Assembly (NCBI GenBank): GCA_964580285.1
Contig: CAZOKB010000008.1
Location: 1-49,727, forward strand
DNA: 49,727 nt
Direction: 5' to 3'
Origin: an uncultured Bdellovibrionales bacterium
Lineage (GTDB): Bacteria > Patescibacteriota > Minisyncoccia > Moranbacterales > UBA1568
Part shown: positions 4,816-11,789 of the stretch, piece after piece
How the letters are laid out: every line of letters begins with the position of its first letter
Position numbering within the stretch: the first letter of the stretch is position 1
Notes under the pieces: generated by a model
What the model was told of the DNA's origin: nothing
Databases searched by the model: none
The model's input: only the letters and a program-made list of their open reading frames with translations
Made by a program: the position numbers and the translations under genes

Positions 4816-5502
4816 TTACCATCCCTTCACTTCCAAGGCCTGTTTGGCGGCGGCGCGCTGAGCCTCTTGTTTGGAAACCCCCTCACCTTCCGCAATCAGT
4901 TCCTCTCCAATAAAAACCCCTGCAACAAAATGCCGATCATGGTCTGGCCCCCATTCCTTTAAAACCCGATACGTCGGCGTGGTACTGTAAGCTTCCTGCG
5001 CTTTTTCTTGAAAAAGACTCTTCGCATCCGCGTACAGCTTTTGATCCAGTACTTCGGGCAGATGCGAAAGCACATGGGCCACAATAAATTTTTTGGCTGC
5101 CTCGTACCCTTGATCAAGGTACAACGCTCCAATAATGGCTTCCATAGCATTCGCCACAATATACTGCCGAGCTCGACCAGTATCTTTGGCCTCACCCCGG
5201 CTCATCAGCAAAAATTCTTCAATACCGAGCTCCTTACCAATCTTCGCCAGCATTTCACCGTTCACAAGTGCGGCTCGCCAGGCGGTCATTTCACCCTCTG
5301 GTCGATCATAGCCATGAAACAAGTTCTCGGTCACCACGAGTTCGAGCACAGCATCACCAAGAAATTCCAAGCGTTCATTATGCGGCAATTTGTACCCTCG
5401 GTGCTCATTCAAATAGGAACGATGCGTGATCGCTTCCTGAAAATAACTCTTATTCTTAATCGTGAATCCGAGACGACGCTCGAAAATCGGTATATCTAAC
5501 AT
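4816..5502 (-). CDS. rnc: Ribonuclease III
   Basis: Signature HNERLEFLGDAVLEL, ANAMEAIIGALYLDQG, C-terminal dsRBD (GEGVSKQEAQRAAA). Confidence 0.98.
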   Translation of the reverse strand: MLDIPIFERRLGFTIKNKSYFQEAITHRSYLNEHRGYKLPHNERLEFLGDAVLELVVTENLFHGYDRPEGEMTAWRAALVNGEMLAKIGKELGIEEFLLMSRGEAKDTGRARQYIVANAMEAIIGALYLDQGYEAAKKFIVAHVLSHLPEVLDQKLYADAKSLFQEKAQEAYSTTPTYRVLKEWGPDHDRHFVAGVFIGEELIAEGEGVSKQEAQRAAAKQALEVKGW

Positions 5503-6924: not shown

Positions 6925-7641
6925 TCACCTCTTCGGTTTCAATACATTCGAAAACCGCTTATTGATGTTTTCAGGTATCGCGAGCTGCACCGGTTTAAAC
7001 GACATCCGATGCAGCGGGCAGGGCCCATGCTTCCGGAGCGCATCCATATGTACTTTGGTTCCATAGCCCTTGTGTTGATCGAAACCGTACACCGGATAGA
7101 GCCCCGCATATTCATCCATCATCCGATCACGTGTCACCTTGGCGATAATCGAAGCCGCCGCAATGGATTTCGAAATGCCATCACCGCCGATGATTGCCTC
7201 CTGAGCAAGCGACAGATGGGGAATCGCCTGGTTACCATCTACGAGAAGAAAAAAATCTTGATCAGATTTCTGTTGATTGTTCGTTGTTAATTGTTTTTTG
7301 ATTGATGATACTGCGGCCTTCATAGCTAAGAAAGTCGCTTCAAGGATATTGACCCGATCGATCGTCTCGGGCGAGATGATGCCGATACCGGTAAAAAAAT
7401 ATTCCTGGATAAGATCGAAGATCTTCTCCCGCTGCTTTTCAGACAACTTCTTCGAATCGCGGATCAGGGAAAATTCTTTTTCGAGTGCATCCGGAATAAC
7501 AAACAAGGGATCTTTGAAACAGACGGCCGCGGCTACAACCGGACCTGCTAAGGGACCACGACCGACTTCATCCACACCAATGACTACCCGACCCCCGTCA
7601 GGTGATTTCAGTTTTTCAATATCAAAGGTGGTTGTTTGCAT
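6925..7641 (-). CDS. rnhB: Ribonuclease HII
   Basis: IGVDEVGRGPLAGPVVAAAV, DSKKLSEKQRE, IAAASIIAKVTRDRMM, HKGYGT; start reset to ATG 7641 because the longer ORF runs through an opposite-strand promoter and RNA. Confidence 0.96.
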   Translation of the reverse strand: MQTTTFDIEKLKSPDGGRVVIGVDEVGRGPLAGPVVAAAVCFKDPLFVIPDALEKEFSLIRDSKKLSEKQREKIFDLIQEYFFTGIGIISPETIDRVNILEATFLAMKAAVSSIKKQLTTNNQQKSDQDFFLLVDGNQAIPHLSLAQEAIIGGDGISKSIAAASIIAKVTRDRMMDEYAGLYPVYGFDQHKGYGTKVHMDALRKHGPCPLHRMSFKPVQLAIPENINKRFSNVLKPKR

Positions 7642-7696
7642 ACGGCTATTGTACCCCGCTTTCCTATTCCCGCCATCCTCACTCATATACGCATCA

Positions 7697-7725
7697 TTGA
7701 CAAAAATACATTCTAGTGCTATAAT
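7697..7725 (+). promoter_or_regulatory. Consensus sigma70 promoter TTGACA-17-TATAAT with extended -10 (TGn)
   Basis: ttgaca 7697-7702, spacer aaaatacattctagtgc, tataat 7720-7725. Confidence 0.85.
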
Positions 7726-7730
7726 TGTAA

Positions 7731-7948
7731 TTCGATAGTCGTCTTGGCGGACGTCGAAAGCAAGTGGACAGCCAGGTTTCCAGCAAAGACGGTCCTCGGT
7801 CAGCTGGAGAAACAACAGGGGTCTTTTCCAAGGGAAGAAAGCTCGATGCGCGCAGAGCAATCATCCTAAAGAAGAGAACTGAATTGTTGTATACTAGCGC
7901 GCCCCCGGGTCGTACGGAACCATCGTACTTCCCGGGGTTTTCATTTTT
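7731..7948 (+). ncRNA. Candidate structured small RNA (about 215 nt), family unassigned
   Basis: Bounded by the perfect promoter and a strong terminator; several self-complementary segments; no ORF with an RBS contained within it. Confidence 0.5.
7903..7948 (+). terminator. Rho-independent terminator
   Basis: ccccggg-tc-gtacg-gaaccat-cgtac-tt-cccgggg followed by ttttcattttt. Confidence 0.8.
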
Positions 7949-8176
7949 AGGCAGAAACAGTATACTAAAGTCACTCTAAACTTCCCTGCAGACTCCAATG
8001 GCATGCCCTGGGCTATGAGGGAACCAAGCTCTATGACCATATCTTCGTTTTTATCTGCGCATTCGCCTTCATTTTGATTGGCGTTTTTTTATTACCAAAC
8101 GAAGTGAGTAAAACGAAAGTCAACTTTCGTTTTCGAACGAGTGCCGGTAAAATCAGGGGCATACCTGTTATTGGAA

Positions 8177-8258
8177 GAATAGAGAATATGGGATATAGAA
8201 TGTAGAGTTCACTATTCTACCCTTTCCTCTTTATTCAATATTCCATATTCAACATTCT
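8177..8258. repeat. Degenerate heptamer-repeat palindrome upstream of dnaE
   Basis: gaataga|gaatatg|ggatata|gaatgta ... attcaat|attccat|attcaac|attct. Confidence 0.7.
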
Positions 8259-11200
8259 ATGCAATTTACTCACCTTCACGTCCATACCCACTACACCCTC
8301 CTCACCGCCCTCGGCAAACCGGAAGAGCTTTTGGCGCGTGCCAAAGAAATGGGGCAGACCGCGCTCGCTATTACGGATACCTCCGCTCTCTATGGCGCGG
8401 TCGAATTCTACATGAAGGCTAAGGATTATGGCATCAAGGCCATCATTGGCGCGGAAATCTTTCTCTGCAAAGACCTCACCAGCAAAAACAATACCGCTGA
8501 AGACCGGCGCCGCAACACCCTGGTGCTGCTCGTAAAAAATGAAACGGGCTATAAGAATCTCCTCAAGATCATTTCCATTGCTCAGCTGGATGGCTTCTAC
8601 TACAAAGCCCGCGCCGATAAGAAGCTCCTCCGTCAATACAGCGAGGGCTTGATCGCTCTCTCTGGATCGCTTCAGGGCGAAGTCCCCGCTGAATTTATCT
8701 ACGGAGACTACGAGCGAGCCAAACGCGCTGCCCTCGAGTACCAGGAAATTTTCGGTCCCGGCAATTTCTATCTCGAAGTACAACCCCATTTCGACAATGA
8801 AGCACAAGCCACTGCCAACCAGGGGCTCATTGCTCTTTCTCGAGAAACCGGCATACCGCTCGTTGCCGCCAACGATGTCCACTACGTGCGCCGTGAGGAT
8901 GCCTCGGTCCAAGATACTCTCCTCTGTATCCGCGACAATAAACGGGTCGATGACCATGAACGATTCTCTATGATGTCACTCGATCTCTCACTCCGGAGTA
9001 CTGAAGACATGGTCGAAGCTTTCAAGGATTTTCCGGACGCTATTGAAAACACACAGAAAATTGCCGAGGCTTGCAACTTTTCCTTTACCTTCGGTGTCAA
9101 TCACCTCCCCTCCTACCCCCTCCCTGAAGGAGTAACCGCTGATACCTATCTCCGCAACCTCTGTGAAGAAGGTCTCCGAAAACGTTTTCCTGAACAGGTT
9201 ATTAATGAAGAACAGCGAACTCGACTCAACTACGAACTCGATGTCATTGAGAAAACTGGTTTCGCTTCCTACTTCTTGATCGTCCAGGACTTCGTCAACT
9301 GGGCCAAGAACAACGGCGTCGTCGTCGGTCCGGGCCGCGGTTCGGCCGCCGGTTCCTTTGTCGCTTACCTCACTGGCATCACCAACCTCGATCCCATCAA
9401 GTATGATCTCCTCTTTGAACGCTTCCTTAACCCGGAACGTATCTCGATGCCCGATGTCGATATGGACTTTGCTGACGATCATCGTGAAGACGTCTTGAAC
9501 TACGTCCGTGAGCGCTACGGTGCCGATCACGTCGCACAGATCATCACGTTCGGAACCATGGCCGCTCGAGCAGCGATCCGTGATGTCGGTCGTGCACTCG
9601 GTATTCCGCTCCCCCTCTGCGACCAGACTGCCAAAATGATCCCCATGTTCACGTCGATCAAAAAAGCGCTCGAGGAGGTACCGGAATTTAAAGCGCACTA
9701 TGACTCAAACGCCGAAGTGCGCCGACTCGTAGACAATGCGCAAAAAATCGAGGGGTTGTCGCGTCACACCTCCATGCATGCTTGTGGTGTGGTTATTACG
9801 AAGGATCCCGTAACTGAATACACTCCCCTCCAGCGAGTCTCCGGATCACGCGAAGGTGTGGTGACTCAATACGCTTCTTCAACTAAAGCCAATGCCGTTG
9901 AAAAAATCGGTCTCCTTAAAATGGACTTTCTCGGACTCAAAAACCTCACTATCATCCAGAACACCATTCGTATTATCCGCGCCCTCGGCAAACTTGATGC
10001 CTTCACTACAACCCTCGGTCTCGATCCAGAAAAAGCTTCCGTATCGGATATCATGGACAAACTTCCGCTTGATGATGTGGCTGCCTTCAAGGTACTTCAA
10101 GATGCTCATACCACTGGTGTTTTCCAGCTCGAATCTACCGGCATGAAACGCTACCTCAAGCAACTCAAACCCACCGTCTTCGAAGATATCATCGCTATGG
10201 TCGCCCTCTATCGTCCGGGACCGATGGACTATATTCCCGACTTCATTGGCGGCAAGCACGGTACCAAACAAGTCGAATACCTCCACCCAAAACTCGAACC
10301 GATTTTGAAGAATACGTATGGTGTCGCTGTGTATCAGGAACAACTCATGCAGATCGCCCGTGACCTGGCTGGCTTCTCCCTCGGCGAGGCCGATGTGCTC
10401 CGCAAAGCTGTCGGTAAGAAAATTAAGGAGCTCGTCGCTGAGCAACGCGTCAAATTTGTTAGTGGTTGCGTAAACAACGGCATCAAGAAAGATGTAGCCG
10501 AACACGTGTTCGATTTCATCGAGCCGTTCGCCGGCTACGGCTTCAATCGCTCCCATGCCGCCTGCTACGCGCTCATCGGCTACCAGACCGCTTACCTCAA
10601 GGCCCACTATCCGGCCGAATTCATGGCCGCCCTGCTTACGAGCGACCAGAACGATACCGATCGTATCGCTATTGAAGTCCGTGAAGCCAGGGAAATCGGT
10701 ATTGAGGTCCTCCAACCCGATGTCAACGAAAGCTTTGAGAGTTTCGCTGTGATCCGTGGAGATGATGGTATAGAACGCATCCGCTTTGGACTCCAGGCTA
10801 TCAAGAACGTTGGCTCGGTCTGCGCTGAAGAAATCGTCAAGGAACGCAAGCGTGGAGGAAAATTCAAAAGCCTGGAAGATTTCGTGGAACGCGTACAGAC
10901 CAAAGATCTTAACAAGAAATCTCTTGAAGCACTGGCTAAAGTTGGTGCTCTCGATCAGCTTGGAGAACGTGAACAAATCCTCGAAAGTATTGATGCCATC
11001 GTGCGACACAGCAAACAAGCTTCGACTATCGTAGCGTCTCATACCCAAAGCCTCTTTGGATCGATGCCCTTATCCAAGCCCACCATTCACCTTATCCAGG
11101 CAGCCCCAGCCCCCAAGCAACAAAAACTTTCTTGGGAAAAAGAACTGCTCGGTCTCTATATTACCGATCACCCGGCCTCGGAATACCGTCATTACTTTGC

Positions 11201-11789
11201 CAAAACCACCGTTCCCTTAAACGATTTGGAAAAGCGAGAAAATGAATCCCGTATCCGTATTGGCGGTTTAGTAACAGCCGTCCGCCGAGTCATGACCAAG
11301 AATGGTAATCCTATGTTTTTCATCGGTCTTGAAGATTTAACCGGCCGAACGGAAGTCTTGGTCTTTGGGAAGACCGCCGAACAAACAGAAGGATTTTGGA
11401 AAGAAGATGATATTGTTATTCTTGATGTGCGTATTTCTAACAAAGATGGTCAGCTCCGCTGTATTGCCGAGAGTGCCGAACGTATCTCCTTAGACACTCT
11501 GAAACAGTTCGAACGCGTGCGCGTCACTCACGAGAAAACAGAGACCGAAAAGAAAATGGCTCAAGAAAAACTTGCTTCGGTTCGAAAGCTCGCTATCACC
11601 ATGGACTCGACAGCTGATTCTCACCGTATCGAACACCTCTCCGCCTTTCTGAAACAGGCACCCAAAGGTGATACCAAGGTCATCGTGAAGCTTCATGGAT
11701 CCACTATCGAGACCCCTTTCTGTATCGATCCGAGTAAAGATATCCTTGCCGCTCTCAGTGCTCTTGAAGGAGTAGAATCTGTTTTATAG
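8259..11789 (+). CDS. dnaE: DNA polymerase III alpha subunit
   Basis: PHP domain (HLHVHTHY, ANDVHY), GPGRGSAAGS, MPDVDMDF, GLLKMDFLGL, GFNRSHAACY, C-terminal OB fold. Confidence 0.98.
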   Translation: MQFTHLHVHTHYTLLTALGKPEELLARAKEMGQTALAITDTSALYGAVEFYMKAKDYGIKAIIGAEIFLCKDLTSKNNTAEDRRRNTLVLLVKNETGYKNLLKIISIAQLDGFYYKARADKKLLRQYSEGLIALSGSLQGEVPAEFIYGDYERAKRAALEYQEIFGPGNFYLEVQPHFDNEAQATANQGLIALSRETGIPLVAANDVHYVRREDASVQDTLLCIRDNKRVDDHERFSMMSLDLSLRSTEDMVEAFKDFPDAIENTQKIAEACNFSFTFGVNHLPSYPLPEGVTADTYLRNLCEEGLRKRFPEQVINEEQRTRLNYELDVIEKTGFASYFLIVQDFVNWAKNNGVVVGPGRGSAAGSFVAYLTGITNLDPIKYDLLFERFLNPERISMPDVDMDFADDHREDVLNYVRERYGADHVAQIITFGTMAARAAIRDVGRALGIPLPLCDQTAKMIPMFTSIKKALEEVPEFKAHYDSNAEVRRLVDNAQKIEGLSRHTSMHACGVVITKDPVTEYTPLQRVSGSREGVVTQYASSTKANAVEKIGLLKMDFLGLKNLTIIQNTIRIIRALGKLDAFTTTLGLDPEKASVSDIMDKLPLDDVAAFKVLQDAHTTGVFQLESTGMKRYLKQLKPTVFEDIIAMVALYRPGPMDYIPDFIGGKHGTKQVEYLHPKLEPILKNTYGVAVYQEQLMQIARDLAGFSLGEADVLRKAVGKKIKELVAEQRVKFVSGCVNNGIKKDVAEHVFDFIEPFAGYGFNRSHAACYALIGYQTAYLKAHYPAEFMAALLTSDQNDTDRIAIEVREAREIGIEVLQPDVNESFESFAVIRGDDGIERIRFGLQAIKNVGSVCAEEIVKERKRGGKFKSLEDFVERVQTKDLNKKSLEALAKVGALDQLGEREQILESIDAIVRHSKQASTIVASHTQSLFGSMPLSKPTIHLIQAAPAPKQQKLSWEKELLGLYITDHPASEYRHYFAKTTVPLNDLEKRENESRIRIGGLVTAVRRVMTKNGNPMFFIGLEDLTGRTEVLVFGKTAEQTEGFWKEDDIVILDVRISNKDGQLRCIAESAERISLDTLKQFERVRVTHEKTETEKKMAQEKLASVRKLAITMDSTADSHRIEHLSAFLKQAPKGDTKVIVKLHGSTIETPFCIDPSKDILAALSALEGVESVL

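Follow-up and report, generated by a model that had tools for sequence, protein, structure and literature searches.

The closest described systems to the locus considered here are RNA devices that control the gene downstream of them. Escherichia coli pyrBI-type attenuators are translation-coupled, with a ribosome on the leader open reading frame (ORF) blocking the terminator hairpin. The DNA polymerase gene of phage T4, gene 43, carries a hairpin translational operator that is bound by its own product. The locus is the spacer between the divergent genes rnhB and dnaE in a Patescibacteria genome of 971,796 bases in 16 contigs, rated 100% complete; the window, that is the whole stretch of DNA analysed, is its 49,727-nucleotide (nt) contig C8. 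The gap between the two genes contains two tandem transcription units on the + strand, termed elements A (7697-7948) and B (7938-8090). Element A is best explained as an orphan, lineage-specific transcript and element B as a conserved structured leader of dnaE in which an upstream ORF (uORF) is coupled to a terminator, a joint reading that is considered probable. Relatives' loci are coded L### and genomes G###, the own genome being G000.

Element B is like the pyrBI-type attenuators in that a short leader ORF and an intrinsic terminator overlap ahead of a structural gene. It differs in having no evident regulatory codons or nucleotide-sensitive pause, in adding a covarying hairpin 7-10 nt before the AUG that probably gates ribosome loading, and in that the gene is dnaE. 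The likeness to the T4 gene 43 operator lies in a small hairpin 5′ of a DNA polymerase start, which in element B is single-copy and gene-specific and in two loci (L032 and L059) abuts the dnaE AUG itself. The two are unrelated in sequence and fold, and in 51 of 54 loci element B would act, if at all, through the uORF and terminator and not at the polymerase start. Riboswitches that occlude the ribosome-binding site (RBS) likewise consist of a covarying domain in the 5′-untranslated region (5′-UTR) with a fixed gene association, and element B resembles them in its bulged invariant G and loop A's. The generic definition of a riboswitch, a conserved and covarying 5′-UTR domain of the regulated gene, describes element B; unlike known riboswitches it has no Rfam match, one gene, one copy per genome, a variable 3′ loop side and no inferable ligand.

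Element A is closer to species-specific orphan intergenic small RNAs (sRNAs), with which it shares a stand-alone promoter-terminator unit, a non-coding body and a narrow phylogenetic range. It differs from them in that neither Hfq nor CsrA was found in the genome, and its RNA function is putative. The other comparison is with 6S RNA, which element A resembles in length, strong promoter and terminator; element A lacks a model match, a rod with a central bubble and conservation among sister species.

Structure and distribution of the probable dnaE leader

The part of the spacer that is common to relatives corresponds to positions 7961-8099 of the window, and iterated nhmmer searches recover element B in 27 of 30 dnaE-upstream loci. 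Its core (7978-8038, + strand) begins 30 nt downstream of the range covered by the original prediction, which ended at 7948 and concerned element A. The core is a hairpin of roughly 45 nt composed of the helix P1 (7982-7987/8018-8023), an invariant bulged G (7988), the 2-bp helix P1a (7989-7990/8016-8017), a 3x3 internal loop (7991-7993/8013-8015), the helix P2 (7994-7996/8010-8012) and an apical stem that usually carries a GNRA-type loop. At its 3′ end an A/C-rich linker leads to an invariant AUG (8033-8035). The internal loop holds conserved A's and is variable on its 3′ side, and conservation along the element peaks in the hairpin, not in the ORF.

All evidence on structure and geometry is comparative, and the related genomes that supply it are not independent. 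In the alignment of 27 sequences, 91.6% of the cells are paired, compared with 30-55% when the 3′ partners are slid; nine of the 15 pairs show double changes, and none of 500 shuffles reaches the covariation score. RNAalifold independently predicts 12 of the 15 pairs, in the same helices. The covariance model built from this alignment, R1, matches the window at the core with 60.2 bits, its sole match in the own genome. A larger alignment of 55 distinct sequences, which was fitted to R1 and so leans towards the model, has 92.5% of cells paired; double changes are seen in 99 cells, compared with 27 in shuffles, and covariation in 10 of the 15 pairs.

The distribution of R1 is confined to one order of ultra-small, Moranbacteria-like bacteria, in which 83 of 150 genomes match, essentially once per genome. 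By family, matches are found in 0/19 genomes of f3, 0/20 of f8, 1/20 of f6, 20/20 of f4 and 19/20 of f9. In the genus of the host, 8 of 10 genomes match; G001 has a run of N at the junction of element B and dnaE, and G002 is 76% complete. A class-wide sample yields six matches in 151 genomes, all of them in the own order (0/145 in other orders). Each of the 30 best loci is followed directly by dnaE in the same orientation.

Expression signals and reading frame of the leader

The promoter of element B (7938-7966, + strand) consists of TTTTCA, a 17-nt spacing and TATACT (7961-7966), and scores 9 of 12. By a loose criterion, a −10-like hexamer lies about 0-24 nt upstream of the R1 match in 53 of 54 distinct loci; these hexamers are mostly (TG)CTATACT or TATAAT, with TGn in 25. 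Since the −10 box stands just upstream of the core, the transcript would start just before P1. The AUG that follows the hairpin is invariant in 54 of 54 rows with letters, and its distance from the end of P1 is 7-10 nt in 51 of 55. In L032 (genome G018) and L059 (G065) this AUG is the start codon of dnaE and is followed by the PHP-domain motif HLHVH. In the window it opens a uORF of 14 codons (8033-8077, + strand) with the product MTISSFLSAHSPSF, the stop codon of which falls in the loop of terminator B. The uORFs of other loci run from 8 to 47 codons and encode heterogeneous peptides.

Terminator B (8064-8090, + strand) is a weak hairpin of the form CGCC...GGCG (8064-8083; −5.5 kcal/mol) followed by seven T's. 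In the window, 168 nt separate the end of this terminator from dnaE, and among loci element B and dnaE are usually 80-230 nt apart. According to an ad hoc script, 51 of 54 distinct loci have a terminator whose T-run starts 39-78 nt past the AUG. The arrangement that defines a leader-peptide attenuator, a short ORF overlapping an intrinsic terminator upstream of the gene, is present in these 51 of 54. The stop codon of the uORF falls within the hairpin in 26 of the 51, past it in 23 and at most 12 nt upstream of it in two. The uORF frame is open to the hairpin in 51/51 loci; the two remaining frames are open in 17/51 and 39/51.

Some of the uORFs, drawn from several families (L015, L017, L026, L027, L039, L049, L063, L066 and L068), begin, as judged by eye, with M[ST/P]N[FL].x[QLP][IV]S[NK]. 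At the DNA level this start is a tandem or palindromic CAAATTTCAAAT-like repeat.

Element B, which has no Rfam family, is read as a putative attenuator or operator of dnaE coupled to translation. The dedicated −10 box would start the transcript, and the nascent RNA would fold at once into the hairpin of about 45 nt. A closed hairpin, possibly held by a protein or ligand, would keep ribosomes off the uORF, the terminator would then form, and transcription would stop before dnaE. When the uORF is translated, the ribosome would mask the terminator and RNA polymerase would continue into dnaE. In the two genomes without the uORF, those of L032 and L059, the hairpin would gate dnaE translation directly. 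Anatomy, covariation, distribution, dnaE linkage and the open uORF frame are observed; the coupling of translation to termination and any effector are proposed. The conserved bulged G and loop A's suggest a specific partner. Because there is one copy per genome, linked to a single gene, autogenous control by a protein such as DnaE would be favoured over a metabolite, and the variable 3′ side of the loop mildly argues against a small-molecule ligand.

Element A as a transcription unit

The promoter of element A (7697-7725, + strand) combines TTGACA (7697-7702), a 17-nt spacing and TGnTATAAT (TATAAT at 7720-7725), and scores 12 of 12 with the TG. The whole genome has 12 perfect TTGACA-N16-18-TATAAT sites where 0.47 are expected from composition, and C8 holds one of them, that of element A. 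The promoter is therefore the best in the window, as originally predicted, and exceeds chance. Other perfect promoters include C1:131986-132014, C1:89227-89255 and C12:21440-21468, and several of the 12 precede 60-90 nt of GC-rich sequence with hairpin potential and then a start codon; some of these sites may mark further leaders or small RNAs. Downstream of the body of element A lies an intrinsic terminator (7903-7948, + strand) in which the stems 7903-7909/7931-7937 enclose an inner stem and are followed by the T-run TTTTCATTTTT at 7938-7948. It coincides with the inverted repeat I2, which has 14-nt arms that are 86% complementary, and was missed by a simple terminator scanner because its loop is above the scanner's limit. 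Consensus hexamers at 17-nt spacing, a GC-rich hairpin and a T-run thus make up a sigma70 promoter and an intrinsic terminator, and both sequence and fold agree with the strong terminator that had been proposed.

The body between these signals (7731-7902, + strand) is about 170 nt long, non-coding and poorly conserved, as judged from fold statistics, Rfam and homology searches. When the terminator is included, the fold of element A has a z-score of −2.83 and 1 of 200 shuffles is as good; the body alone has a z-score of −1.63, with 13 of 200 shuffles as good. It is thus no more stable than shuffles, and the claim of a structured RNA fails on this point. In the minimum free energy (MFE) structure of 7731-7902, and likewise in the centroid, a closure of 6 pairs surrounds a multi-branched fold of three hairpins. 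Of the hairpins that the original prediction named, two recur, one at 7731-7759 in the centroid and one at about 7777-7813 in both structures. The third, a GCGCGC/GCGCGC pairing across 7848-7902, is missing from the MFE structure, which pairs about 7812-7889 in its place.

The coding capacity of element A is small. A 41-amino-acid ORF starting with TTG and a 71-amino-acid ORF starting with GTG lie inside it, both without a Shine-Dalgarno (SD) sequence, and the product of the latter has no match in Pfam. An SD-like AAGGGAAG (7830-7837) is followed 8 nt later by the ATG (7846) of a 7-codon mini-ORF that ends in TAA (7867-7869) and encodes MRAEQSS; the whole feature occupies 7830-7869 on the + strand. 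The statement that no RBS-led ORF fits inside the element consequently holds for ORFs of at least 30 codons and not for this short one. With a consensus promoter, a strong terminator and no long RBS-led ORF, element A remains, as proposed, a stand-alone unit with no real coding capacity. It appears to be non-coding or to hold at most the 7-codon mini-ORF, and is probably a genuine, orphan transcription unit.

RNA-library evidence consists of assembled contigs from two studies, from which transcript ends, strand and level are not readable. One 159-nt contig from one of the studies spans 7792-7950 and is a weak hint that the 3′ part of element A is transcribed; high expression is plausible, judged from the promoter. 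The contigs 7997-8147 and 8138-8288 cross terminator B into dnaE, which is weak evidence for readthrough there. Libraries X5 and X6 each give one long contig over the whole 1.6 kb that is indistinguishable from DNA carry-over, and runs X19 and X20 leave most of the stretch without coverage, which proves nothing.

Comparison with known RNA families

No Rfam family matches the window at the gathering threshold, and 7600-8300 has only chance-level matches at E<=10. The homologs of elements A and B in six relatives (including L072 and L015) are unmatched at E<=1. With conservation in relatives also largely missing, the suggestion of an orphan riboswitch does not hold for element A. The suggestion of a 6S-like RNA fares no better: the 6S family RF00013 has no match at E<=10 either in the own genome or in 7600-8300, the predicted fold is multi-branched and not a rod with a central bubble, and the unit is absent in 4 of 8 close relatives. 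On this evidence no fold is conserved in element A, which is neither a 6S RNA nor a riboswitch nor a housekeeping RNA of another kind.

The exclusion of signal recognition particle (SRP) RNA, transfer-messenger RNA (tmRNA), RNase P RNA and a T-box stands. ARAGORN detects no tRNA or tmRNA in 7000-9000, and the tmRNA lies elsewhere in the genome (C3:23435-23834, 111.6 bits). The best match to RNase P RNA is C2:23530-24278, which scores 49.2 bits, below the gathering cut-off, over 749 nt against a 367-position model and is probably an RNase P RNA with large insertions. SRP RNA (RF00169, RF01854) is found neither in the own genome at E<=10 nor in any of 41 relatives at E<=1. Its absence is understandable because the Ffh M domain and the SRP54-type GTPase domain, and so Ffh and FtsY, were also not found in the own genome, and on the same grounds element A is rejected as a hidden SRP RNA. 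Matches to PF00448 in relatives cover only a short P-loop, with scores up to about 25 bits. Passages of a published study report the loss of ffh and ffs in Parcubacteria (PMC4508563); those passages on SRP loss do not mention FtsY.

Two further relationships were considered. Hairpin 2 of element A is not a paralog of element B, as a search of 7650-8300 with R1 and filters off gives no match at 7777-7813. RNAduplex pairings of element A with the dnaE leader and the 5′ end of rnhB are no better than mononucleotide shuffles; these are forced whole-length duplexes and are uninformative.

Turnover of the element A slot in relatives

A blastn search with 7690-7955 finds no match in 40 relatives. Sensitive blastn and nhmmer searches leave spacer positions 90-220 (window 7731-7861, which holds hairpins 1 and 2) unmatched in relatives, and the conserved part of the spacer is the one downstream of element A. 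The spacers of seven genomes of the same genus were read directly, as was that of the metagenome lineage closest to the host, L072 (L073 is identical to it; its DnaE is 91% identical to that of the host). Of these eight close relatives, all with a spacer that could be read, four carry a unit homologous in position, namely L014, L015, L016 and L072. All four have a TTGACA −35 box, a 17-nt spacing, a TGn −10 box and a terminator just upstream of the next promoter, with predicted transcripts of 102, 279, 347 and 396 nt compared with 218 nt in the window. Many indels separate the units from one another, and some of those between close relatives are of 1 nt.

What the window has in common with L014-L016 is limited to part of the 3′ body. 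Its common feature with L072 is the block of SD-like motif and ATG (7830-7848), the best-conserved body block of that pair. In L072 the corresponding GGAGAGAAAGCTCAATG begins an ORF of 32 codons, which extends across the terminator of that unit and shows no peptide similarity to the 7-codon ORF. A lack of sequence or structure conservation in relatives, which the original prediction had named as evidence against itself, is largely what is observed, as hairpins 1 and 2 have no counterpart.

The same slot is filled differently elsewhere: L013 has an ORF of 229 aa, L019 has one of 210 aa, and L017 and L018 have just a hairpin. In further genera it holds other ORFs or nothing, and no other genus examined has a unit like element A. 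The proteins at L013:2717-3403 and L038:490-1158 (229 and 223 aa), from different genera, are 37% identical and belong to no Pfam family; the slot ORFs of other genomes are unrelated and encode 136-258 aa, and six slot ORFs searched against Pfam match no family. The idea that element A is a pseudogene of such ORFs gained no support, since tblastn of all relatives' spacer ORFs of at least 60 aa finds no match in the own genome. Given these varied contents, the slot between rnhB and the dnaE leader is, on this comparison of genomes, hypervariable and a hotspot for small accessory genes, with element A as one occupant. Within the genomes compared, element A is restricted to part of one Moranbacteria-like Patescibacteria genus and evolves fast by indels. 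Its narrow occurrence and rapid indel evolution are the reason for reading it as an orphan, lineage-specific small transcript; it may be an sRNA of recent origin, or what remains of a small gene that is still transcribed.

Alternative explanations

A number of observations count against the joint reading. For element A, the retention of promoter and terminator in five lineages suggests selection for transcription, so that an RNA function is possible; five divergent sequences are too few for a proper test of structure conservation, and the RNA evidence amounts to the single 159-nt contig, for which DNA carry-over is possible. For element B, a metabolite pocket would not typically vary as the internal loop does on its 3′ side. 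The whole-leader fold has a z-score of +0.46, no better than shuffles, and its MFE structure lacks the hairpin, which is the MFE structure only for the isolated segment (−13.2 kcal/mol). Terminator B of the window has 4 bp and is weak, and the +2 control frame is also open to the hairpin in 39 of 51 loci, the related genomes not being independent. An SD-like tetramer (GGAG, GAGG or AGGA) occurs in only 28 of 55 P1 3′ strands. Use of SD sequences appears low in the genome, at 105/867 compared with 85/867 in a control window (a crude count on the first ATG of long ORFs), and the 16S tail retains CCUCC. With the tetramer in about half of the strands and so little SD use, sequestration of an SD sequence by the hairpin is not general.

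Among other explanations of element A, a functional and highly expressed sRNA that acts in trans or sequesters a protein through short repeated motifs such as GCAA(C) is possible but rather doubtful. A perfect promoter and strong terminator are retained in the window, L014-L016 and L072, the lengths of 102-396 nt and the GCAAC-like repeats seen by eye in L014-L016 are reminiscent of modular sponge RNAs, and the RNA-library contig over 7792-7950 fits as well. Yet the repeated words are a by-eye impression, a conserved fold is lacking (body z −1.63), the unit is missing in half of the eight close relatives and in all other genera examined, neither CsrA nor Hfq was found in the genome, and element A pairs with the dnaE leader or the start of rnhB no better than shuffles do. 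Decay is a somewhat less probable explanation, in which element A would be what is left of a small protein gene or mini-ORF leader, its promoter, start region and terminator having outlasted the coding body. The best-conserved block shared with L072 is indeed an SD-like motif with an ATG at the correct spacing, the ATG of L072 opens 32 codons, L013, L019, L075 and others carry promoter-ORF-terminator cassettes in the slot in the same orientation, and the divergence is rich in indels. This sits poorly with the blank tblastn search, with 7-codon and 32-codon ORFs that share no peptide, with the absence of the SD-ATG block in L014-L016, and with a promoter of 12/12, which is unexpected in a neutral remnant.

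It is improbable that element A is an upstream extension of the dnaE leader whose strong promoter feeds dnaE through leaky terminators of A and B. The two units lie in direct tandem order on the same strand, the −35 box of the element B promoter falls within the T-run of terminator A, and the A unit of L072 has a uORF through its terminator, the same design as in element B; but terminator A is strong, the RNA-library contig ends at 7950 (weak evidence), in 53 of 54 loci element B is preceded by a conserved −10 box of its own, and most genomes have B without A. A similarly low probability is given to element B being an independent small gene, for an sRNA or micro-protein, beside a dnaE with its own promoter. 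Its own promoter and terminator, the 80-230 nt that usually separate it from dnaE, and the start M[ST]N[FL].x[QLP][IV]S[NK] shared by eye among a subset of uORFs would agree with such a gene, whereas no promoter-like site was seen between 8091 and 8258, dnaE is the next gene in all 30 loci checked, L032 and L059 use the invariant AUG to start dnaE itself, the peptides of 8-47 aa are otherwise unconserved, and conservation peaks in the hairpin and not in the ORF. Least probable by far is a 6S RNA or other housekeeping RNA of the host too divergent for Rfam. A transcript of about 215 nt with a strong promoter, in a genome where no 6S RNA was found elsewhere, is set against RF00013 unmatched even at E<=10, a multi-branched predicted fold, and absence from 4 of 8 close relatives in which the slot is otherwise filled. 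The reading that is preferred remains an orphan transcript A next to a structured dnaE leader B.

Gene neighbourhood and further features

The rnhB gene, encoding RNase HII, occupies 6925-7641 on the − strand (Pfam RNase_HII, E 1.8e-36), so that element A is divergent from it as the original prediction had stated. The dnaE gene, encoding DNA polymerase III alpha, occupies 8259-11789 on the + strand and has the Pfam PHP, DNA_pol3_alpha, finger, HHH_6 and OB domains. Among relatives, 24 of 30 loci retain the two genes as a divergent pair, and the spacers measure 181 to 1306 nt. A TACAAT −10-like box at 7642-7665 (− strand) ends 7 nt upstream of the rnhB ATG, and relatives have TATACT where the window has this rnhB-proximal TACAAT. 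The position of the box suggests that the rnhB mRNA may be leaderless or nearly so.

Inverted repeats lie between terminator B and dnaE. A long one, I1 (8176-8258, + strand), has 32-nt arms that are 78% complementary, and its 3′ arm ends at the dnaE start codon, so that the start region of dnaE would be buried in a hairpin. I1 may be a second control layer or a site for RNase III (rnc, 4816-5502), and by eye L013 and L072 have repeats like it. At 8110-8133 there is a further inverted repeat, a perfect one of 11 nt (AAAACGAAAGT / ACTTTCGTTTT). In L014, L015, L016 and L019, large inverted repeats around a conserved TTTTTCTGATGCCCCGTATTTCCGAATACGCAGCAAGGAAAAAG-like core lie between element B and dnaE; they are absent in the window.

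Implications

Element A serves as a caution, since a textbook promoter, a terminator and plausible hairpins need not mean a conserved structured RNA. The body of element A changes almost without constraint, in a slot whose content is replaced from one species to the next. Element B is a candidate new Rfam family that is single-copy, has strong covariation, is confined to one order and always precedes dnaE. The literature retrieved by a full-text search holds no description of a dnaE leader, uORF or riboswitch, and as far as that search shows, post-transcriptional control of the replicative polymerase gene is apparently undescribed in bacteria.

A bolder and still tentative proposal, less likely than the joint reading above, is that element B senses DnaE, the replisome or a small molecule and sets polymerase synthesis across the order through uORF-coupled antitermination, and that element A is a young, strongly expressed sRNA. 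If true, an element B that senses DnaE, the replisome or a ligand would be the first riboregulator of dnaE. In the host Patescibacteria, with genomes of about 1 Mb, few regulators are known, and element B provides a testable handle on how such reduced cells might match their replication capacity to translation or another signal.

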